Origin: Bacillota bacterium
GTDB taxonomy: Bacteria > Bacillota > Desulfitisporia > Desulfitisporales > JAWSUQ01
Direction: 5' to 3'
Assembly: GCA_033549265.1 (NCBI GenBank)
Contig: JAWSUQ010000001.1
Coordinates: forward strand, 1 to 29,198
DNA: 29,198 nucleotides
Within the stretch, counting starts at the first letter, position 1, and each line of letters begins with the position of its first letter. Both the position numbers and the translations under genes were made by a program. The notes under the pieces are model-generated. The model saw only the letters and a list, made by a program, of their open reading frames with translations. It did no database searches and was not told where the DNA came from. Below are positions 2,199 through 13,798 of this stretch, one piece after another.

Positions 2199-4037
2199 AT
2201 GTGCGGATTTGTGGGCTTTGCTGACGCTAACTTAGAAATAGATAAGATGAAAACAATTGAAAGCATGATGAACACAATAATTCATAGGGGCCCTGATAGC
2301 GGAGGGGTATATTCAGATGAAAAGGTAACTTTAGGATTTAGACGGCTGATGATTATAGATCTATCGGAAGATGCAAGCCAACCAATGTATAATGAAGACA
2401 AAAGCTGTGTTTTGGTTTTCAATGGGGAAATATACAACTATCAGGAATTAAGAGCAGATTTAATTGCTAAAGGGCATGTTTTTGTTAGTAATAGTGATAG
2501 TGAAGTAATTCTACACGGTTACGAAGAGTATGGCGTGGAACTGCTGCAAAAGGTAAGGGGAATGTTCGCATTTGCTATTTGGGATACAAACAGCGAATCA
2601 ATGCTTTTAGCCAGGGATTTTTTTGGTATAAAACCATTGTACTATTCTCAGAATACAGTAGACAACTCCCTTATCTTTGGCTCAGAAATTAAATCATTTT
2701 TGAAGCAACCAGCCTTTAAAAAAGAGCTAAATAAAAATGCCTTAAGGCCCTATTTAACCTTTCAATATTCAGTACTAGACGAAACCTTTTTCAAAGGTGT
2801 GTATAAATTAAAGCCTGGTCACTATATGCTGTACAAAAAAGGCCAGCTAGAACTTAAGCGCTACTGGGAATCCAGGTTTGATGAAGAGGGTAATAGCTTA
2901 GAGTATTATGTAGAGCAAATTAAACAAACTATGAGGGAATCGGTTAATTATCATAAAATTAGTGATGTCAAAGTAGGCTCATTTTTATCAGGAGGCATAG
3001 ACTCCAGTTATATTACCGCATTACTAATGCCAAATAAGACTTTTTCGGTGGGTTTTCACGACTATGAAGCAATGTTTAACGAAACTAAATTGGCTAAAGA
3101 ATTATCGGATATCTTAAAAATAGAAAATAATAGGTATATTATTAGCGCAGATGATTGCTTTGAAAAGTTGCCAACTATTTTATATCATATGGATGAGCCC
3201 CAATCAAATCCTTCTGCAGTCCCGTTATACTTTTTGGCAGGACTTGCTAGTGAATATGTAACAGTAGTGTTGTCCGGTGAAGGTGCCGATGAAATATTTG
3301 GAGGGTACCCTTGGTATCAAAACTCGAAATTAATGGCAAAATATGAGAAAATTCCTTTTGCGATTCGCCGCCCTATTTCTTTATTATGTCAAAGACTGCC
3401 AAAAAACAAATTCACTGGATTTTTGGAAAAGGGCGGGAAAAGGGTGGAAGAGAAATTTATTGGGGAAGCCAAGGTGTTTGAGGAAAATGATGCTCTCTCC
3501 GTTTTGAAAGATGAATATAAAAAAGGTCCCTCTGTCCAAAGTATTACTAAAAAAGTATACGATGAAGTAAAGGGTGAGGATGACGTTACTAAAATGCAGT
3601 ATCTTGACATAAACTTATGGCTTCCTGGAGATATTCTTTTGAAAGCTGATAAAATGAGTATGGCCCATTCCCTTGAATTAAGAGTCCCGTTCCTAGATAA
3701 AGAAGTAATGTCATTAGCATCCCGGATACCAAGTGAACAGAGAGTTAACAGTATAAATACCAAGTATGCCTTAAGAATTGCGGCAAATGAAACATTGCCA
3801 GATGAGTGGGCAAAAAGACCAAAACTAGGCTTTCCAGTACCTATTAGATATTGGATGCGGGAGCAGAAATACTATGATATGATTAAGGAAATGTTTCAAT
3901 CAGAAATGGCTAAAGAGTTCTTTAATACTGAGGAGCTTGTTAGATATCTAGATGAGCATTATACCAGCAAAAAAAATTATGCAAGGTATATTTGGACAGT
4001 GTATGTTTTTCTTGTATGGTACAAAAAGTTTTTTTAG
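2199..4037 (+). CDS. asnB: Asparagine synthase-like glutamine amidotransferase (AsnB/AsnH family), likely peptidoglycan amidase-forming enzyme
   Basis: N-terminal MCG nucleophile, HRGPD, NGEIYN, SGGIDSS, SGEGADEIFGGY, SLELRVPFLD, KLGFPVP; GAGGTG RBS. Confidence 0.93.
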   Translation: MCGFVGFADANLEIDKMKTIESMMNTIIHRGPDSGGVYSDEKVTLGFRRLMIIDLSEDASQPMYNEDKSCVLVFNGEIYNYQELRADLIAKGHVFVSNSDSEVILHGYEEYGVELLQKVRGMFAFAIWDTNSESMLLARDFFGIKPLYYSQNTVDNSLIFGSEIKSFLKQPAFKKELNKNALRPYLTFQYSVLDETFFKGVYKLKPGHYMLYKKGQLELKRYWESRFDEEGNSLEYYVEQIKQTMRESVNYHKISDVKVGSFLSGGIDSSYITALLMPNKTFSVGFHDYEAMFNETKLAKELSDILKIENNRYIISADDCFEKLPTILYHMDEPQSNPSAVPLYFLAGLASEYVTVVLSGEGADEIFGGYPWYQNSKLMAKYEKIPFAIRRPISLLCQRLPKNKFTGFLEKGGKRVEEKFIGEAKVFEENDALSVLKDEYKKGPSVQSITKKVYDEVKGEDDVTKMQYLDINLWLPGDILLKADKMSMAHSLELRVPFLDKEVMSLASRIPSEQRVNSINTKYALRIAANETLPDEWAKRPKLGFPVPIRYWMREQKYYDMIKEMFQSEMAKEFFNTEELVRYLDEHYTSKKNYARYIWTVYVFLVWYKKFF

Positions 4038-4062
4038 AAACCAATGGAGTTGAAGATATTTC

Positions 4063-5292
4063 ATGAAAAAGTTAGACTTTGTTCCAGTAATACTAGGTAG
4101 CGATGTTAATGCCTACGGCATGGCAAAATCATTTCATCAGCAATATGGTGTAAAAAGCGTGGCTGTTGGTAAAGCACAACTTTTTGCTACCAACTATTCT
4201 AAAATAATAACAGTTGATGTGTGTGATGATTTTGATCATCCCGATGTTTTTGTTCCTAAGCTTATTTCTGTTGCAAAAGAGCTAAAAAAGACCACAGCTA
4301 AACTTGTCCTAATTGCTAGCAGTGACAATTACGTAGAGCTTATCGTCAGAAATAAGGAGGTATTAGCAGAGTATTATGTTACTCCTTTTGTTGATGAAGA
4401 TTTATTGAATTGCTTAATATATAAAGAGAAGTTTTATGAAACCTGTGACAAGCATAATTTAGATTACCCTAAGACTGTTATTTGCACTAAGGAAAATAAA
4501 GATCAACTTCAGTTACCATTTGAATTTCCGGTAGTTGTGAAGCCATCAGATAGCTTGTTATATGCTAACTGTTCCTTTGCTGGCAAAAAAAAGGCTTATG
4601 TTCTACAGGATAAAAAGGGCTTTAAAGAAGTTATAAATAAAATATATTCCACTAGCTATGATAAAAATTTGATTATTCAAGAGTATATTCCAGGCGACGA
4701 TACTGCAATGCGAGTTCTAAACTGTTATTGCGGACAAGATAAAAAAGTAAAAATGATGTGTCTTGGTAGGCCGCTTTTAGAAGATTATACTCCAGTATTA
4801 ATTGGCAACTATACCGCAATTATTAATGAGTATAATGAAGAAATTTATAGTAAGTACAAGGATTTTTTAGAACAGATTGGTTACATTGGCTATGCTAATA
4901 TTGATATGAAATACGATGAACGAGATGGAAAATATAAAGTGTTTGAAATAAATTTGCGGCAAGGAAGAAGCAGCTACTTTGTCACTGGAAGTGGATATAA
5001 CTTAGCTAAATATTTAGTAGAAGATTATGTATACAACGGCGGCTCGTCAGAGTTAGTTTTGGGAAGAAATGAATCTCTTTGGTTAGGAATACCTAAGGGG
5101 GTATTGCTCAAATACCTTGAAGATGAAGAGCTTAAAGCTTACGTGCAAAAACTTATAAAACAAAAGAAATACTGCTATACCTTATACTACAATAAGGATT
5201 TTAACCTCATAAGATATCTAAAAAATAGCTTGTATTATCAAGCCTATCACAAAAGATATGCCCAATACTTTAAAAACAGAGATATTGACTAA
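4063..5292 (+). CDS. asl: ATP-grasp D-aspartate ligase (Asl/YxbA family)
   Basis: PVILGSDVNAYGMAKSF, FPVVVKP, IIQEYIPGDDTAMRVLNCY, MMCLGRPLLED, DMKYDERDG, FEINLRQGRSSYF closely match my recall of Enterococcus faecium Aslfm. Confidence 0.88.
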   Translation: MKKLDFVPVILGSDVNAYGMAKSFHQQYGVKSVAVGKAQLFATNYSKIITVDVCDDFDHPDVFVPKLISVAKELKKTTAKLVLIASSDNYVELIVRNKEVLAEYYVTPFVDEDLLNCLIYKEKFYETCDKHNLDYPKTVICTKENKDQLQLPFEFPVVVKPSDSLLYANCSFAGKKKAYVLQDKKGFKEVINKIYSTSYDKNLIIQEYIPGDDTAMRVLNCYCGQDKKVKMMCLGRPLLEDYTPVLIGNYTAIINEYNEEIYSKYKDFLEQIGYIGYANIDMKYDERDGKYKVFEINLRQGRSSYFVTGSGYNLAKYLVEDYVYNGGSSELVLGRNESLWLGIPKGVLLKYLEDEELKAYVQKLIKQKKYCYTLYYNKDFNLIRYLKNSLYYQAYHKRYAQYFKNRDID

Positions 5293-5356
5293 TTTTCTTT
5301 CTTTAGCTAAACAGCAACTGACAAAAGTTGACTTAAGTTTCGGAGGGGGGATTATC

Positions 5357-6439
5357 GTGCCACTTTTAGACAAGACAAATATTGAAAAAGTAGAAAAGTA
5401 TAATAATTTCGTGAGAAAATCAGAATTTGCATCTGCAACCCAAGATATCAATTGGTCATTAGTTAAGAAAGATTGGGATAATGAACAGGTCTTTATTGAA
5501 CAAGATGGTAAAATTGTTGCAGCTATGTCACTGCTAATAAAAAGAGTTTTGGGCAACTATGCTATGATATATGTTCCGAGAGGTCCTGTATGTGACATTT
5601 ACAATAAAGATTTAGTGAATGAGCTGGTCCTAGAGGTGCAGCCAGTGGCCCATAAGTATAATGCCTTTATGCTGAGGTTTGATCCAGAGGTAAATTATGA
5701 TAAAAGCCTTGGCGAAATGTATGGGGAATTAGGTTTTATAGTAAGAAACCTGGGACTTAGCAAGGACGACTTTATCCAGCCAAGATATAATATGGTTTTA
5801 GATATAGAAAATTTAGATGAAGATGGGGTCTTGAAAAAGTTTAGCAAGAAAACGCGGTATAACATTGGTTTGGCATCCCGCAAGGGCGTTATTGTTAATT
5901 ATTATAATAGTGATGAGGCATTAGAAATATTTTATGAGTTGCATGAAATTATGGGGAAAAGAAATAAGATAGCCATTAGGCCCCTTCAGTATTTTAAAGA
6001 TATGAGGGTTGCCTTTGGCCAGCAATTGAGAATATATATAACAGAGCATGAGGGAGACTATTTATCTGCGGCAATAGCTATTAGCTATGGAAAAAAAGTT
6101 TGGTATATTTACGGTGCCAGCTCCAACGAAAAAAGAAATTTTATGCCTAACTATATTATGCAATGGGAAATGATTAAGTGGGCTTTGGAACAAGGCGCCA
6201 CTAAATATGATTTTGGCGGGGTTTTTGAGCTGAACCATAGCGACGGTTTGTATAAATTTAAAGAGGGATTTTGTTACACTGACGGTGCTACAGAGCTGAT
6301 TGGAGAATTTGACAAGGTATACAAACCCTTAGTTTATTACTCTTTCACCAAATTAGTACCGAAAGTCCAAAAATTGAGGAAGAGCTTAAATACAGTAAAA
6401 TGCTTAGGTAGAGGAGGAAAGAATGAGAAGGATAGTTAG
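5357..6439 (+). CDS. femX: FemABX-family aminoacyl-tRNA-dependent peptidoglycan bridge transferase (short FemX type, no coiled coil)
   Basis: TQDINW..VK..W, IVAAMSLL, YVPRGPV, LRFDPEV, IQPRYNMVLD, WYIYGASS, YDFGG, LYKFKEGF, IGEFD; start moved to GTG 5357 behind GGAGGGGGG RBS, giving MPLL... like the N-terminus of Weissella FemX as recalled. Confidence 0.9.
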   Translation: MPLLDKTNIEKVEKYNNFVRKSEFASATQDINWSLVKKDWDNEQVFIEQDGKIVAAMSLLIKRVLGNYAMIYVPRGPVCDIYNKDLVNELVLEVQPVAHKYNAFMLRFDPEVNYDKSLGEMYGELGFIVRNLGLSKDDFIQPRYNMVLDIENLDEDGVLKKFSKKTRYNIGLASRKGVIVNYYNSDEALEIFYELHEIMGKRNKIAIRPLQYFKDMRVAFGQQLRIYITEHEGDYLSAAIAISYGKKVWYIYGASSNEKRNFMPNYIMQWEMIKWALEQGATKYDFGGVFELNHSDGLYKFKEGFCYTDGATELIGEFDKVYKPLVYYSFTKLVPKVQKLRKSLNTVKCLGRGGKNEKDS

Positions 6440-7483
6440 ATTTGTTTTTTTTTGCTCATAATCATCCTTCTATTTATGGGAGGTAGGACTGTTACTGATG
6501 TGCTTTTGATGACAAAGCAAGGTGTTATCACTGTTGTTAGTATTGATGCTATTAGCCAGTTGCCTATCAAAAATGTAGAATATCTAATTATTGATTATGA
6601 CACTCATGAGCTGGTGGAAAAGCTGAGCACTAATGAAAATGGCAGTGCAACCTCAAGCTTGCTGGACTATGGAAAAACATATGTCATCAGGCAACATAGG
6701 GTGAAGCCACCTTATGATTATTCAAAAGAAGTTGAACAATTACTTACAATCGATAATGAGATTCACCATTTCATAGCAGAACATAGCTGGCTAGACTATA
6801 TTAAAGAAGTTAGTCGTACTGCAGATGGGGAACTTATTATTAGAGAAGTATATATACCGGTCCCAACTATATTGCAAAAGCCGGAACTGCCAAACGGTTG
6901 TGAGATTACTTCCTTAACAGCTGTATTAAATTATTATGGCTACAGTGTCACAAAAACTGAGATGTCAGATGACTTTTTGCCAAAGCAACCTTTTGTTTAT
7001 CGAGATGGTAAATTATATGGTGCTGACCCTTATTTGGCATACTCTGGCAATCCAAGAAATAGCTATGGCACTGGTTCAGCAAATTACGGCGGGTGGTTTA
7101 CTTATCCTCCTCCAGTAATTGAAGCTGCTAAAAAGTACATTATGAGCAGCGAAGGTGTACATAGTGCTGTAGATATATCTGGAAGTGACCCGGAAGATAT
7201 TATAGAGCTATTAAATCAGGGTATTCCTGTGGTGACTTGGATGACATTAGACTTGGATGAGCCAAGATTTTTGGGCTACTCATGGTATTTACATGATAGT
7301 GAAATAATATTTAATCCACCGGTGAATCTTCATGCTACAGTTATAAATGGGTATGTGGATGATAGATTGCATGTAATGGATCCATTAAAGGGACAAGTTA
7401 TTTATGATGCCAATACATTTTTTAATAGCTATGATGCCTTGGGAAGTCATGCTATGATAGTTGTCAATCAAATACATGATTAA
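6423..7483 (+). CDS. Membrane-anchored C39-like (Peptidase_C39_2) cysteine peptidase with SpaA/prealbumin-like Ig domain; reading frame broken at T9 tract 6445-6453
   Basis: QKPELPNGCEITS (Gln, Cys), NLHATV (His), VMDP (Asp); TNENG...L.YG.TY Ig-like pattern; AGAGGAGG RBS before ATG 6423 whose frame stops at TAA 6459-6461, while the long ORF continues from 6452. Confidence 0.78.
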
Positions 7484-7495
7484 GAAGGTGCAGCA

Positions 7496-8221
7496 ATGGA
7501 ACACAAACTATTAGGAATTTTAGGTGGAATGGGACCTAAGGCTACCTCAGTTTTTTTTGATAAAATTATAGAATATACAATTTCTAAGCGGGATCAGGAT
7601 CATATTGATATTCTAATCCTTAATCATGCTACATTGCCTGATAGGACTAGTACTATTCTAGAGCATAGAGAAGAACAATTTTTAGAATTAATTGAGAAGG
7701 ATATTAGGCTTTTTGAGCTGGCAGGAGTCTCGAATATTGCTATACCTTGCAATACTACACATTTTTTTCACAGCAAGATGCAGGAAATGACAGAAATAAA
7801 TATAATTAATATGGTAAATGAAACAATTAAAGAGATATACGCGAAATATGGCGAGAGTAGTAAAATTGGCATCTTGGCAACTAATGGTACCATCAACAGT
7901 GGAGTATATAGTGAGGAGTGCAAAAAATACAATCTGGAGTTACATGTTCCGGAAGAAGCGATGCAAGAAAAAGTTATGAAAATAATTTATGAGGATGTAA
8001 AAGGCGATTTAGATGCTGACCCTACTGAGCTAGAAGCAATCATAAATGAACTTGTTTATAAAGAAAATTGTGTTTGTGTTATATTAGCATGTACTGAATT
8101 ATCTTGTATCCAAATAAGCTATAAAACAAAAAAATATTGTATCGATGCCATGGAGGTACTAATCAAGAAATCTATAATATTATCTGGCAAGAAGTATGGA
8201 AAAGAACTAGAGTCTAGATAA
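7496..8221 (+). CDS. racD: Aspartate racemase (cofactor-independent Asp/Glu racemase family)
   Basis: LGILGGMGPKAT, DQDHI, both catalytic cysteines in IPCNTTH and LACTELS, GILATNGT. Confidence 0.9.
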   Translation: MEHKLLGILGGMGPKATSVFFDKIIEYTISKRDQDHIDILILNHATLPDRTSTILEHREEQFLELIEKDIRLFELAGVSNIAIPCNTTHFFHSKMQEMTEINIINMVNETIKEIYAKYGESSKIGILATNGTINSGVYSEECKKYNLELHVPEEAMQEKVMKIIYEDVKGDLDADPTELEAIINELVYKENCVCVILACTELSCIQISYKTKKYCIDAMEVLIKKSIILSGKKYGKELESR

Positions 8222-8262
8222 GGAGCAGGCAGACTAAGCACATACTTAAGGGGGATGTATGT

Positions 8263-8475
8263 ATGACAATAAAGACTAACAAGTTCGAGGAATTTCTATC
8301 AGAATCCTTTTTTGATGGTTTAAAGCATAGAGAACTAAGACTATCTGATGAAGAAGTGAAATATATTCAAAGAGAATATCCAAAATCAATATTAAAGAGA
8401 ATACAAACAAACCAATATTTAGATGGTAAAACTTGGTATAATGTTAAATTAATTAGTGATAAACCTAATCTGTAA
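8263..8475 (+). CDS. Hypothetical 70-aa protein
   Basis: AAGGGGGA RBS, co-oriented and tightly spaced within the operon; no motif recognised. Confidence 0.7.
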   Translation: MTIKTNKFEEFLSESFFDGLKHRELRLSDEEVKYIQREYPKSILKRIQTNQYLDGKTWYNVKLISDKPNL

Positions 8476-8506
8476 TACTAATTAGCTTCAGTGGTGGTGG
8501 AACCTA

Positions 8507-9265
8507 ATGAGAAAAAATGACCGCAAAAAAAACAGAGAAGAGAATAAAGGGGAATCTGGTTGGCTGTTGACTTATGCTGATATGATTACCTTAGTTTTAA
8601 CGTTCTTTATCCTTCTTTATACAATGTCCACAATAGATGTTATAAAATTTTCCCAAGTAGTTGCTTCTGTAAAAGGTTCTTTAGGAGTGATAGATGGCGG
8701 AAGAACAATCGAGTCAGAGCCCTTAAATGATATGGGTGAGATGGAAGACGAAATTTTGCAGATGTTAAAGGATTGGGAAGAGGAAGAAGATACTATTAGA
8801 GATATAGTTATTAGGCTAGAAGCATTACTAGAAGTTGAACAAATTCAGGATGCTGTCCGTATTCTAGTAGATGAAAGGGGCATTAATATTAGGTTCTTGG
8901 ATCATGTGCTATTTGATAGAGGTAGGGCAGAGCTGAAGCCCGAAGCAAAACCGCTACTAGATGAAGTGTACAATATTATCAGTGAGCTTGACAATCAAAT
9001 TAGAGTAGAGGGTTATACATGCGACTTGCCAAGTAATACGGTGGAATTTCCTACAAATTGGGAACTATCAACTAGAAGAGCGACTAATGTTTTAAGATAT
9101 TTACATGAAAAAGGAGTAGATGGTGAACGGCTCTCAGCGGTGGGTTATGGTGAGTATCGCCCATTAGTTCCTAATACTAATGAAGCTCAACGGCGCCAAA
9201 ATCGAAGAGCCGATATAATTATTTTAAGGGAAAATTATATGGAAGATTTGGATGATAGAAATTAA
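8507..9265 (+). CDS. motB: MotB/MotS-family stator protein with OmpA-like domain, no adjacent motA
   Basis: WLLTYADMITLVLTFFILLY transmembrane helix with conserved Asp, DERG, LFDRGRAEL, TNWELSTRRA, GYGEYRP, NRRADI. Confidence 0.92.
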   Translation: MRKNDRKKNREENKGESGWLLTYADMITLVLTFFILLYTMSTIDVIKFSQVVASVKGSLGVIDGGRTIESEPLNDMGEMEDEILQMLKDWEEEEDTIRDIVIRLEALLEVEQIQDAVRILVDERGINIRFLDHVLFDRGRAELKPEAKPLLDEVYNIISELDNQIRVEGYTCDLPSNTVEFPTNWELSTRRATNVLRYLHEKGVDGERLSAVGYGEYRPLVPNTNEAQRRQNRRADIIILRENYMEDLDDRN

Positions 9266-9294
9266 ACAGAGCGATAGGCTCTGTTTTTGTTTTT
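9264..9294 (+). terminator. Intrinsic terminator after motB
   Basis: AAACAGAGC-gatag-GCTCTGTTT followed by TTGTTTTT. Confidence 0.85.
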
Positions 9295-9363
9295 GGTTTT
9301 ATAGCTTTATTCCTAAAATAATTATTTTTGAGCATATTAAATAATAGTTTTCAATATTTGCAT

Positions 9364-9383
9364 TAATACTATTAATAGTATTA
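9364..9383. promoter_or_regulatory. Perfect 20-bp palindrome, candidate operator
   Basis: TAATACTATT|AATAGTATTA in the intergenic region upstream of the ACT gene. Confidence 0.4.
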
Positions 9384-9410
9384 GTTGATTTTTTTGAAGG
9401 ATATCTTTTA

Positions 9411-9439
9411 TTTTAACCGAATACATAATGCTATATAAT
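9411..9439 (+). promoter_or_regulatory. Candidate sigma-A promoter for ACT/UPF0210 operon
   Basis: TTTTAA-17 nt-TATAAT; perfect -10, weak -35. Confidence 0.45.
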
Positions 9440-9460
9440 TTTTTAAAGAGGTGGAAGCAA

Positions 9461-9739
9461 ATGAGTGAAAACAAAATAATTGTAACAGTTTTAGGGAAGG
9501 ACCGAGTTGGGATTATTGCTGGTGTTGCCAATACATTAGCTGGACTAAATGCAAATATTTTAGATATTAGTCAAACTATTCTACAGGATTTCTTCACTAT
9601 GATTATGGTAGTGGATATTACAAATTGCAATGTAGAGTTTAGCAGTATCAAAGAAAAACTTGACGAAACTGGTGAAGCATTAGGAGTAAAAATAACTGCT
9701 CAAAGTGAAAAAGTTTTTGACTTTATGCATCGTATTTAG
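9461..9739 (+). CDS. ACT domain protein (UPF0237 family)
   Basis: IIVTVLGKDRVGIIAGV...NILDISQTIL..FFTMIMVVD; start ATG 9461 after GAGGTGG. Confidence 0.92.
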   Translation: MSENKIIVTVLGKDRVGIIAGVANTLAGLNANILDISQTILQDFFTMIMVVDITNCNVEFSSIKEKLDETGEALGVKITAQSEKVFDFMHRI

Positions 9740-9752
9740 GAGGTAACAGACA

Positions 9753-11123
9753 ATGCCTGTTTATTCAGTAACAAGTAATGAGATATTAGAGACAATTCGC
9801 ATGGTTGAAATGGAGAACTTAGATATTAGAACTATTACTATGGGGATTAGTTTGAGAGATTGTAGCCATAGCGATGCGAAAATAGCCCAACAAAAGATTT
9901 ATGACAAGATTACTCGATTAGCAGAAAATCTAGTTGGAGTTGGAGAAGAACTAGCAAGAGAATACGGAATACCAATAATAAACAAAAGAATATCAGTTAC
10001 CCCTATTAGCATTGTTGCGGAGGCCAGTGACGTAGATTCTTATGTAGGCTTTGCCAAGGTACTTGACAAAGCTGCTAAAGAAGTAGGAGTGAATTTTTTA
10101 GGGGGTTTTTCAGCTTTAGTACATAAAGGGTGTACCGTTGGTGATATAAAGCTAATGGAATCTATCCCGCAAGCGTTGGCGGAAACCGAGCGAGTATGCG
10201 GATCGGTGAATGTAGCTAGTACTAAAGCAGGAATTAACATGGATGCAGTTTATAAAATGGGCAAAATAATAGTGGAGACAGCTGAGCTTACCAGAGATAA
10301 GGGTGGTCTAGGTTGTGCGAAGCTAGTAGTATTTTGCAACGTGCCAGAGGACAACCCCTTTATGGCAGGAGCATTTCATGGTGTGGGTGAGCCAGAATGC
10401 GTCATTAATGTTGGTGTTAGTGGTCCTGGTGTTGTCCTTAACTCAATTAAGAAGCATCCTAATGTGGATTTTGGCGAGTTGGCTACTGTGATAAAAAAGA
10501 CAGCTTTTAAAATAACCAGAATGGGTGAACTGGTAGGTAAGGAAGCTTCAACTAGGTTAAAGGTACCTTTTGGCATTGTTGATCTGTCACTAGCCCCTAC
10601 TCCTGCTATTGGTGACAGTGTAGCTGACATCATAGAAGCAATGGGCTTAGAAAGGGTTGGTACTCATGGTACTACGGCAGCTTTAGCAATGCTGAATGAT
10701 GCAGTCAAAAAAGGTGGAGTAATGGCTTCCTCACATGTTGGAGGTCTAAGTGGAGCCTTTATTCCTGTAAGCGAAGATGCAGGAATGATTGAAGCAGTGG
10801 AGGTAGGAGCATTAACAATCGATAAGCTTGAGGCTATGACATGTGTATGCTCGGTAGGCTTAGATATGATTGCAGTTCCAGGAGATACCTCAGCTGAAAC
10901 AATTGCAGCAATTATTGCTGATGAATCTGCCATTGGGATGATTAATCGTAAAACTACGGCTGTGCGGGTTATTCCAGTGCCGGGAAAAAAAGTTGGCGAA
11001 ATGGTGGAGTTTGGAGGTCTACTGGGAAGGGCTCCCATCATGCCCGTAAATAAGTTTAATTCCAGTGCCTTTGTCAAAAGAGGTGGCAGAATTCCAGCAC
11101 CCTTACAAGCTTTTAATAATTAA
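9753..11123 (+). CDS. UPF0210 / DUF711 (PFL-like fold) family protein
   Basis: [75 protein letters not shown]. Confidence 0.93.
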
Positions 11124-11141
11124 ATAAAATTGAACCTAGAG

Positions 11142-11182
11142 AAACCACTTGATATTTAATTATAATATCAGGTGGTTTTTTA
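11142..11182 (+). terminator. Intrinsic terminator after UPF0210 gene
   Basis: AAACCACTTGATATT-taattat-AATATCAGGTGGTTT (one G-U pair) then T run. Confidence 0.8.
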
Positions 11183-11269
11183 AATTTTTGTAGGTTAAAT
11201 AATATTTAACGCATAGAATTTAATGAGCACATTTGGGGAAATTATATATATGGGCAAGGAGGAAAAAAA

Positions 11270-11578
11270 ATGAGTATGGATGATATTAAAGTAAGGTTAG
11301 TCCACAAGATAGAGGAGCTATCAATAAATATTGAAAAAATGAAACTGGCGGAATATGTAGATTTGTTACACAACCCTAAACGCTTGTTGTACATTAACTT
11401 TTTAGCGGGAGTAGCCAGAGGTGTGGGGCTTGCCATAGGTTTTACTCTTTTAGGTGCAGTAGTAATATATGTTTTGCAGAGATTAGTTTTATTAAACTTG
11501 CCTTTGATAAGCGATTTTATTGCTGAGATTATTTGGATGGTGCAAAGCCAAATGAACCAAGGCAGAGGTGGGTTGTAA
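11270..11578 (+). CDS. DUF5665 family small membrane protein
   Basis: LAEYVDLLHNPKRLLYINFLAGVARGVGLAIGFTLLG pattern; AAGGAGG RBS. Confidence 0.85.
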   Translation: MSMDDIKVRLVHKIEELSINIEKMKLAEYVDLLHNPKRLLYINFLAGVARGVGLAIGFTLLGAVVIYVLQRLVLLNLPLISDFIAEIIWMVQSQMNQGRGGL

Positions 11579-11602
11579 TTTCTTAAAATAGGAGTGTATA
11601 TC

Positions 11603-12349
11603 ATGGACCAGAAAAAGCAGTTACAAATAAAACAGCAATTGCTAAAGGAAAGAAAAGAGTTTCAAGAAGAAGTTTCTCATATGAATCTAGGACAATTAGA
11701 AGGATCAATGAGTGATGCTACTGGAGAACTATCAACATATGATAACCATCCAGCAGATCTTGGTTCAGAAATGTTTGAACGCAGTAAAGATCTGTCCATA
11801 AGGGAAAACTTGAAGCATCAAATTAGCCATATTGATGATGCTTTAGGCCATATGAAGGATGGTACATACGGGGTTTGCGAAATGTGCGGCAAGCAGATAG
11901 ACAATGAAAGACTAGAAGCGATACCTTCAACAACCTTATGTAAGGCCTGTAAAGAAAAGAATGAACATGATATTATTGACACCCAGGTAAGACCAGAGGA
12001 AGAAGAAGTTATTCCTCCACCATTTGGAGGGAATCTTGAAGGTAGACCGCTAAAGGAGCTGGGTGAACAGAAAATTAACATGTATGATGGGGAAGATGCC
12101 TGGCAAGATGTAGCAAGATATGGGACTGCAGATTCTCCTCAAGACCTCCCAGGAACAAAGGATTACCAAGACATGAACATTGATGCCGATGAGGACAGGA
12201 GCAAGGTAGAGGATGTGGATGGGATACCTTATTTTAGGGGAGCAGATGGAATGATTTATGAAGATTTATATGGAAAGGATGACGAGGACTCTCCTGAAGA
12301 GGTTATCAGAGGAGATGAAGGTTGGGATAGAGTACAGCGAAAATCTTGA
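11603..12349 (+). CDS. yteA: YteA-family TraR/DksA C4 zinc-finger protein (sporulation associated)
   Basis: GELSTYDNHPADLGSEMFER, YGVCEMCG...RLEAIP..TLCKAC, acidic tail with AWQDVARYG; the GTG at 11594 is part of the RBS, so start placed at ATG 11603. Confidence 0.85.
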   Translation: MDQKKQLQIKQQLLKERKEFQEEVSHMNLGQLEGSMSDATGELSTYDNHPADLGSEMFERSKDLSIRENLKHQISHIDDALGHMKDGTYGVCEMCGKQIDNERLEAIPSTTLCKACKEKNEHDIIDTQVRPEEEEVIPPPFGGNLEGRPLKELGEQKINMYDGEDAWQDVARYGTADSPQDLPGTKDYQDMNIDADEDRSKVEDVDGIPYFRGADGMIYEDLYGKDDEDSPEEVIRGDEGWDRVQRKS

Positions 12350-12374
12350 ATATTTTTCTTCCCTATGGTAAAAT
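12346..12374 (+). promoter_or_regulatory. Sigma-A promoter for lspA-rluD
   Basis: TTGAAT-17 nt-TAAAAT with extended -10 TG at 12366-12367. Confidence 0.7.
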
Positions 12375-12402
12375 TTAATAATCCGAAAGGGGAGATAAGT
12401 AA

Positions 12403-12888
12403 ATGCTATTTTGGGTCGTTGCAGCAGTGATTTTTATTATTGATAGGTCTACCAAATATTTAGTAGTGGCTAATATGTCTCCAGGTCAGTCTATTCCTAT
12501 CCTGGAAAATATTTTTCACCTTACGTATGTGCTAAATCCAGGGGCAGCATTTGGATTATTTGCATATCAAACTATGTTTTTTATTTTGATTGCTGTGTTA
12601 GTGGTAGGCGTAATTCTCTATTTTAACTGGACCCTTCCTGCTGGTAAACAGTTCTTGAGAATTGGTTTAGCATTGCAATTAGGTGGATCTCTCGGGAACC
12701 TGTTAGATAGGATTCAAAGTGGCTATGTTGTGGACTTCTTTGACTTTAGAGTATGGCCGGTTTTTAACATTGCTGATATTGCTATTGTGACTGGCGTAGT
12801 AATCTTAGCCTATGAAATTCTGAGAACAGATTATACAGAAGATGAAAAGGATGAGGACCTAATTGAAAATGGATACAACAAAGGATAA
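12403..12888 (+). CDS. lspA: Lipoprotein signal peptidase II
   Basis: D..TKYLV, NPGAAFG, GGSLGNLLDRI, VVDF, FNIADIAI. Confidence 0.96.
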   Translation: MLFWVVAAVIFIIDRSTKYLVVANMSPGQSIPILENIFHLTYVLNPGAAFGLFAYQTMFFILIAVLVVGVILYFNWTLPAGKQFLRIGLALQLGGSLGNLLDRIQSGYVVDFFDFRVWPVFNIADIAIVTGVVILAYEILRTDYTEDEKDEDLIENGYNKG

Positions 12889-13798
12889 GGAACAGCTTAA
12901 TATATTGGTCGATAGCACTGGGGACAGGCTTGATTTATATATTAGTGAGCATAGCGGTTTTAATAGGTCAAGAGTACAAAAGCTTATTAAAGATGGCTGT
13001 GTATTAGTTAATAGGGCTAATGCCAAGTCTAACTATAAAGTAAAAGAGGGCGATATTATAGCTGTTGACGTCCCTCTTGAGCAACCATTAGAGGTTACCC
13101 CGGAAAAAATTCCACTAGACGTAGTTTATGAGGATAAAGACTTGATAGTGATAAATAAGCAAAGGGGATTAGTTGTTCATCCAGCAGCTGGCAATTACTC
13201 GGGAACGCTTGTTAATGCCTTATTAGAGCATTGTGAGGGCGAGCTGTCGGGAATAAACGGTGTCATACGTCCAGGAATAGTTCATCGTATTGATAAAGAT
13301 ACTACAGGGCTATTAGTTGTAGCTAAAAGTGATCAAGCCCATCTAAAGCTAGGGGAGCAAATACAGAACAAAACGGTAACCCGTGAATACTTTGCTTTAG
13401 TTCATGGTAATATAATAGAAGCTAAAGGTACCATAGAAGGCCCCATAGGCCGACATCCAGTTAACCGAAAAAAAATGGCAGTGGTAGAGCATGGGAAGCC
13501 AGCTGTAACTCATTATACGGTAGAAAAACGCTATAAACAGTACACCTTAATTAAGGCTAAGCTAGAAACTGGTAGAACCCATCAAATAAGAGTTCATTTT
13601 TCTTTTATCAATCATCCGGTGGTTGGAGATCCTTTATATGGTCCACTAAGGCCCCATTTTAAGCTAACTGGTCAGTTGCTTCATGCCTACAAGCTAGGTT
13701 TTATTCATCCTGCTCATGGTGAATACATAGAATTTTTCAGGCCTATACCTGAAGACTTTCAAGAAGTATTAGAAAAAATAGCAATAAATAATATTTAA
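12863..13798 (+). CDS. rluD: RluA/RluD-family 23S rRNA pseudouridine synthase
   Basis: S4-like N-terminus, INKQRGLVVHP, HRIDKDTTG catalytic Asp, LETGRTHQIRVH, GDPLYG. Confidence 0.95.
   Translation: MKMDTTKDKEQLNILVDSTGDRLDLYISEHSGFNRSRVQKLIKDGCVLVNRANAKSNYKVKEGDIIAVDVPLEQPLEVTPEKIPLDVVYEDKDLIVINKQRGLVVHPAAGNYSGTLVNALLEHCEGELSGINGVIRPGIVHRIDKDTTGLLVVAKSDQAHLKLGEQIQNKTVTREYFALVHGNIIEAKGTIEGPIGRHPVNRKKMAVVEHGKPAVTHYTVEKRYKQYTLIKAKLETGRTHQIRVHFSFINHPVVGDPLYGPLRPHFKLTGQLLHAYKLGFIHPAHGEYIEFFRPIPEDFQEVLEKIAINNI

Follow-up and report, generated by a model that had tools for sequence, protein, structure and literature searches.

The 29,198-nucleotide window analyzed here (positions 1 to 29,198 of contig JAWSUQ010000001.1, assembly GCA_033549265.1, from a Bacillota bacterium of the order Desulfitisporales) carries two intact, adjacent genes on the + strand that relate to the interpeptide bridge of peptidoglycan. 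The asl gene (4063–5292) encodes a 409-aa putative D-aspartate ligase of the ATP-grasp type (PF02655, ATP-grasp_3), and femX (5357–6439) encodes a tRNA-dependent aminoacyl transferase of the Weissella type (PF02388 at 8.9e-56). The comparative analysis indicates that FemX and Asl are probably a functional pair that acts in sequence to build a two-residue A4-type bridge on the cytoplasmic nucleotide precursor. An earlier note, made from the letters of the window, had pointed out the adjacency and had favored a sequential bridge of the form X-(Gly/L-Ala/L-Ser)-D-Asx over competition of the two enzymes for one amine. That preference is upheld on comparative grounds by a separate clade of Asl proteins, matching trees of the two genes, the different states of the locus in Sporosarcina, the retention of Lys36 and Arg211 equivalents in FemX, and the presence of racD and an AsnH-like gene in the operon. 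The note was also right that such two-residue bridges are known chemically, since L-Lys-L-Ala-D-Asp is reported in S. highlanderae and L-Lys-Gly-D-Asp in Nesterenkonia, and its remark that no enzyme pair had been demonstrated agrees with our literature search, which found no Asl–FemX paper (most taxonomic journals were outside its reach). What is new, as supported by the sequence comparisons, is an Asl clade that is tied to FemX as its partner and rides on a transferable cassette for bridge synthesis; the bridge chemistry itself was already known.

The initial comparison covered 80 genome loci with an Asl homologue. In the 15 loci closest to the Asl of the window (at least 52% identity over the best segment), femX lies immediately downstream of asl, and no femX was found within 10 kb of Asl in any of the remaining 65. 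The set was then enlarged with Serpentinicella, S. pasteurii, and further Sporosarcina loci (12 femX-adjacent, 4 S. ureae-type, and 4 femX-less). In the resulting 103-row tree, rooted on two groups of racD-less ATP-grasp proteins (S. ureae-type and femX-less), the 29 Asl proteins with an adjacent femX all fall into one clade (Shimodaira–Hasegawa-like approximate likelihood ratio test [SH-aLRT] value of 95), which is sister to the Asl of Enterococcus and Vagococcus (SH-aLRT 96). Outside the 29, femX was missing within 10 kb at each of 66 Asl loci. The clade contains members of Bacilli (Sporosarcina, Bhargavaea, Alkalibacillus, Paenibacillus, and Ureibacillus) and Clostridia-like lineages (Serpentinicella and metagenome-assembled genomes [MAGs] of Peptostreptococcales and Peptococcia); an Asl homologue of Natranaerobius, also adjacent to femX, was outside the tree. 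The label "femX adjacent" requires a single change on the Asl tree, compared with a mean of 25 after shuffling, and none of 500 shuffles gave a number as low. Given this single change and the recurrence in 29 genomes of two classes, the adjacency is not due to chance. The same main clades appear in the Asl and FemX trees, and asl and femX have therefore been inherited as a unit. FemAB genes were searched for in five genomes with a classical Asl and were absent from four of them, and none was found in S. pasteurii.

Twelve alignment positions, each at least 90% conserved, separate the femX-coupled from the classical Asl proteins, and four of the 12 fall within residues 241–249. A separate clade with diagnostic residues fits a changed acceptor and would be unexpected under mere competition of the two enzymes for the same Lys amine. 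We predict from these positions that the acceptor of the femX-coupled Asl is the α-amine of the residue added by FemX, not the Lys ε-amine. Competition itself, in which FemX and Asl act in parallel on the same side-chain amine and yield a mixture of single-residue Gly/L-Ala and D-Asx bridges, has a natural starting point in the two prototypes, as W. viridescens FemX and E. faecium Asl both use the Lys ε-amine of UDP-MurNAc-pentapeptide (PMC2655667; PMC4155827). The acceptor of an Asl cannot be read directly from its sequence, which also leaves room for this explanation. However, parallel action accounts neither for the femX-linked clade and its diagnostic residues nor for the matching main clades of two gene trees across two classes, and two-residue A4 bridges are established chemotypes. 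We know of no chemotype that is defined as a mixture of two single-residue bridges, which also counts against competition. We consider it unlikely.

The likeness of the Fem protein to W. viridescens FemX, which the earlier note had suggested, is confirmed at full length. The alignment of the femX product with the 335-aa enzyme of W. viridescens (PDB 4ii9/1ne9) is continuous, with an E value of 1.8e-64 and no coiled-coil insert, and the product contains all three motifs quoted for it (LRFDPEV, IQPRYNMVLD, and AAMSLL). The coiled-coil enzymes FemX and FemA of S. aureus align to it only as two pieces. Although the longest open reading frame (ORF) spans 5258–6439, the true start is the GTG at 5357, which is followed by PLLDKTN as in the N terminus of W. 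viridescens FemX and gives a protein of 360 aa, in agreement with the length of its entry in the protein database. A ribosome-binding site, GGAGGGGG (5342–5349, + strand), is located 7 nt upstream of this GTG. With asl ending at 5292 and femX starting at 5357, the two genes are 64 nt apart and do not overlap. The L-Ala specificity implied by the Weissella likeness did not hold up: the NCBIfam equivalog for the L-Ala transferase (NF047883) scores 282.3 bits against a cut-off of 500, and the femX product is thus a relative of the L-Ala transferase and not an equivalog. The sequence does not reveal which amino acid is transferred, and related FemX proteins occur in species reported to have Gly in the bridge. 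femX is the sole FemAB-family gene found in the host genome.

In W. viridescens FemX, Lys36 and Arg211 hold the phosphates and the D-Ala residues of UDP-MurNAc-pentapeptide (PMC2655667). Alignment to this enzyme shows that both are conserved in the femX product (K70 and R241 in P0002 numbering), as are the equivalents of Asp108, Tyr215, Phe304, and Lys305. Because Lys36 and Arg211 are retained, the FemX of the window should use the unbranched nucleotide precursor, that is, act first.

The order of the two steps can also be approached through Sporosarcina, where an Asl-like ATP-grasp gene is present in all 86 genomes and FemX in 34. By coordinates, the ATP-grasp gene has femX as its immediate neighbor in 18 of these genomes, and 12 of the 18 were checked as state b below. 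Four states were distinguished at what appears to be a single syntenic locus with a DEAD helicase gene downstream (the context was inspected for states a to c). State a, found in S. pasteurii, has asl-racD without femX, and its Asl is 50% identical to that of the window. State b has asl-femX-racD with 53–57% identity (S. trichiuri, S. aquimarina, S. ureilytica, S. jiandibaonis, and S. beigongshangi). In state c, a divergent ATP-grasp gene (39% identity) is followed by an inserted chemoreceptor gene and femX, with no racD (S. ureae and S. newyorkensis, same 90% cluster). State d, in other Sporosarcina genomes, consists of a divergent ATP-grasp gene (38–41%) alone, again with no racD. S. ureae and S. 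newyorkensis, both of state c, are cited for a Gly-D-Glu bridge, for which the sources given in PMC6962226 are Schleifer & Kandler 1972 and the description of S. newyorkensis. So in Sporosarcina, racD appears to track the D-Asp-type ligase, and femX appears to track an extra proximal residue. The four states would in this way reproduce the four A4α bridge variants known in the group. The FemX proteins of state b share ~65% identity with those of state c, and the ATP-grasp partners of the two states differ. Similar FemX proteins with swapped partners fit a constant acceptor, the diamino acid, and hence FemX acting first.

The reverse order, in which Asl places D-Asp on the diamino acid and FemX extends the D-Asp amine so that the tRNA-derived residue ends up at the free end, would agree with the gene order (asl, then femX) and with the general ability of Fem enzymes such as FemA and FemB to extend existing branches. 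The FemX considered here, however, belongs to the single-domain Weissella type and retains the residues that hold the nucleotide precursor in its unbranched form. The pairing of ~65%-identical Sporosarcina FemX proteins with either D-Asp-type or racD-less ATP-grasp enzymes is also easier to understand if the acceptor is the constant diamino acid, and the reported A4 dipeptide bridges are written with the dicarboxylic D-amino acid distal to Lys. The reverse order is therefore quite improbable.

The acid activated by the Asl of the window would be D-Asp, as judged from the sequence relationships and gene linkage. Over its full length, the protein shares 46% identity with an Enterococcus protein that carries a D-aspartate ligase annotation (this is not the characterized Aslfm), and its homologues in Lysinibacillus, Ureibacillus, Planococcus, Vagococcus, Sporosarcina, and many Oscillospiraceae are 46–57% identical to it. 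Most of these homologues precede racD, and many are also accompanied by an amidotransferase gene. The asl-racD(-asnH) arrangement is known in Lactococcus, in which the roles of AslA, racD, and AsnH are established (PMC4155827; bioRxiv 2023.10.08.561446). The assignment of D-Asp follows from the linkage to racD and asnH, in contrast to the racD-less S. ureae-type loci: racD is linked to asl in nearly all D-Asp-type loci and missing from those of the S. ureae type. The ATP-grasp core (K160, D281, E295, N297, and R299) is invariant in 103 Asl homologues. A sequence search of the PDB found no relatives of Asl. The AlphaFold (AF2) model (predicted local distance difference test score [pLDDT] of 94.5) adopts a standard ATP-grasp fold, and its nearest neighbors in a fold search were PurK, carbamoyl-phosphate synthetase, PylC, and L-amino-acid ligases, which are generic ATP-grasp neighbors. 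Addition of another acid such as D-Glu, or modification of a substrate other than the peptidoglycan precursor, is very improbable, because, although the wider family includes 39%-identical racD-less S. ureae-type enzymes from species reported with D-Glu in the bridge, and although there is no Asl structure or specificity code, the Asl of the window lies inside the racD-linked radiation as sister to enterococcal Asl and shares its operon with an aspartate-racemase-family gene, an AsnH-like gene, and a MurE gene.

We propose a sequential pathway for the pair, with the order of the steps taken from the substrate residues of FemX, the swapped partners in Sporosarcina, and the written form of the known bridges. 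In the first step, FemX would take Gly, L-Ala, or L-Ser from the corresponding aminoacyl-tRNA and attach it to UDP-MurNAc-pentapeptide at the side-chain amine of residue 3. In the second step, the Asl-clade ligase would activate D-Asp made by RacD as β-aspartyl phosphate and join it to the free α-amine of the residue added by FemX, not to the diamino acid. In the third step, the AsnH-like amidotransferase would convert the free α-carboxyl group into an amide, giving D-isoAsn. The occurrence of racD and the AsnH-like gene in the operon is the reason for expecting D-Asp and then D-isoAsn. The amine of D-Asx would then serve as the acceptor in transpeptidation.

Several points weigh against this sequential pathway. 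Its support comes from comparative genomics of an uncultured MAG, and the order of the FemX and Asl steps is deduced from residues and gene partners. A look-up of sequencing runs that might show expression of the locus listed none. S. highlanderae, which has the L-Lys-L-Ala-D-Asp bridge, and its relatives were not among the named Asl or FemX matches, and no carrier species of the femX-adjacent, racD-linked state could be linked to a measured chemotype. S. pasteurii, in whose genome no FemAB gene was found, is said to have a D-Asp-L-Ala bridge; if that holds for the sequenced strain, a bridge of this kind can also be made without a Fem enzyme. A "Ge" bridge for S. aquimarina would clash with the racD gene in its locus. 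The motif of the window's MurE gives no lead to the diamino acid that carries the bridge: DNPK matches neither the DNPR of enzymes for diaminopimelic acid (DAP) nor the DDPR in the second MurE of Caryophanaceae. The "Ge" entry for S. aquimarina in PMC6962226 was not used as evidence, as it is cited there from other species and not measured in S. aquimarina.

The Asl of the window shares its family, the linkage to racD and an AsnH-type gene, and the invariant ATP-grasp core with Aslfm of Enterococcus faecium and AslA of Lactococcus lactis. It differs in its clade, a separate one whose members always have femX downstream, in the 12 diagnostic substitutions, and in the predicted α-amine acceptor. 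In a similar way, FemX resembles the W. viridescens enzyme from end to end, lacks a coiled coil, keeps the key residues, and probably acts on the nucleotide precursor. In Weissella, other Fem enzymes add more residues after that of FemX, whereas an ATP-grasp ligase is predicted to supply the next residue in the system of the window. The loci of S. ureae and S. newyorkensis are alike in combining one FemX (52–53% identical to that of the window) with one ATP-grasp ligase; they differ in the ATP-grasp partner (39% identity), in the absence of racD, and in the reported distal residue, which is D-Glu and not D-Asp. The literature search found no characterization of either enzyme of the S. ureae-type locus.

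Lys-Gly-D-Glu, Lys-L-Ala-D-Asp, and Lys-Gly-D-Asp bridges have served as markers in taxonomy since the 1970s, and no enzymes assigned to them were found in the literature search. The locus of the window and its 28 relatives provide a testable gene pair, and the Asl marker clade would allow such bridges to be predicted from a genome. An extra L-Ala in the bridge shifts only the molar ratio of Ala, so a qualitative amino-acid analysis would miss this residue. The results also suggest that the acceptor of an ATP-grasp ligase has changed, from the Lys side chain to the N terminus of a peptide.

Besides asl and femX, five genes on the + strand belong to the cassette. The first, murE2 (637–2157), encodes a second MurE with Mur ligase domains (TIGR01085) in which DNPK replaces DNPR, and its product would set the diamino acid that carries the bridge. 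The DNPK motif is kept in every island-linked MurE, and the best PDB match of the protein, a plant plastid MurE-like protein, likewise has DNPK. The other MurE of the host has the canonical DNPR and adjoins further Mur ligase genes. Caryophanaceae with the asl-femX pair carry one DDPR and one DNPR MurE.

The second gene (2199–4037) encodes an asnB/asnH-like glutamine amidotransferase with Asn_synthase and GATase domains (TIGR01536). The combination of a class II glutamine amidotransferase domain with an Asn-synthase domain and the linkage to asl fit the AsnH type, and its homologues adjoin asl at many loci, both with and without femX. The same architecture is shared by L. lactis AsnH, which amidates the bridge D-Asp (PMC4155827), and by AsnB1 of Lactobacillus plantarum, which amidates meso-DAP (mDAP). 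By analogy with AsnH, the enzyme of the window would amidate the bridge D-Asp to D-isoAsn, although it may instead act on an mDAP-like target.

Downstream of femX, the gene at 6452–7483 encodes a C39-like cysteine peptidase with a SpaA-like N-terminal domain (PF13529, PF17802). It keeps its slot right after femX in the cassettes of Serpentinicella, Paenibacillus, and Clostridia MAGs, and could be a bridge-specific endopeptidase. In Viridibacillus, a C39-like peptidase gene adjoins asnB-asl with no femX there. The next gene, racD (7496–8221), encodes an aspartate racemase (PF01177; TIGR00035 at 184.6 bits) that would supply D-Asp. The last gene (8507–9265) encodes a motB-like protein with MotB_plug and OmpA domains and lies inside the segment that the relatives of the host lack. 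No motA was seen among the ORFs of the window despite the motB-like gene.

The order on the + strand is the 3' end of ileS (3–509), murE2, asnB/asnH-like, asl, femX, C39-like peptidase, racD, and motB-like. The intergenic gaps range from 12 to 64 nt across murE2-asnB-asl-femX-C39-racD. A scan of the window for σ70 promoters and terminators stayed at background level except for two hairpins flanking the island: a terminator-like hairpin with an 18-bp stem after ileS at the left edge (512–551), and another with a 9-bp stem containing 4 GC pairs followed by a T-run, on the + strand at 9264–9286, which closes the island transcription unit. With these short gaps and convincing hairpins only after ileS and motB, the murE2-to-motB segment looks like a single transcription unit. 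No tRNA genes were found in the window; thus, there is no dedicated wall tRNA nearby.

The source genome is a MAG of 2.9 Mb in 499 contigs with 93.5% completeness. In the two closest genomes compared, one of the same family and one of the same order, ileS is followed directly by ACT-DUF711-dksA-lspA-rluD-pyrR-pyrB, whereas in the window the cassette separates ileS from the ACT/DUF711 pair. As these relatives lack the murE2-motB segment and their ileS abuts ACT, the segment from ~510 to ~9430 is an inserted island of ~8.9 kb, a clean insertion into the conserved ileS-...-lspA-rluD-pyr synteny. Asl was looked for in both genomes and found in neither, and the only MurE found in them is about as similar to the murE2 product as is the host's own DNPR copy (41–42% identity). 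The nearest relative of the island is in Serpentinicella alkaliphila (AsnB, 79%; Asl, 69%; FemX, 66% identity). The distribution suggests that Bacilli and Clostridia-like lineages can exchange a whole bridge pathway, complete with its MurE, as a single island. A broader view, which we put forward only tentatively, is that asl-femX forms the core of a mobile, self-sufficient, chemotype-switching cassette (a MurE with a DNPK pocket, FemX, the new-acceptor Asl, RacD, the amidotransferase, a peptidase of its own, and a MotB-like protein as wall anchor) that was inserted into a DAP-type lineage and might allow this organism to build a second peptidoglycan, with bridges, in addition to or in place of its ancestral direct DAP cross-link. 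On the idea that the two MurEs serve the vegetative wall and the spore cortex bear two further results: SpoIVA was not found in a search of the 93.5%-complete MAG, and a Spo0A C-terminal domain was found on contig 7 of the host.

Two loci outside the main comparison contain related gene groups. In Natranaerobius trueperi (locus 6765–13453), asl and femX are adjacent, with neither asnB nor racD within that locus, and the pair lies a few kilobases from IS66-family transposase genes, which fits mobility of asl-femX. In Ornithinimicrobium sufpigmenti (locus 2223–7104), an ATP-grasp gene is clustered with two FemAB genes and a gene for a DegT-type aminotransferase; by analogy, this cluster is possibly an actinobacterial version of the same bridge logic.

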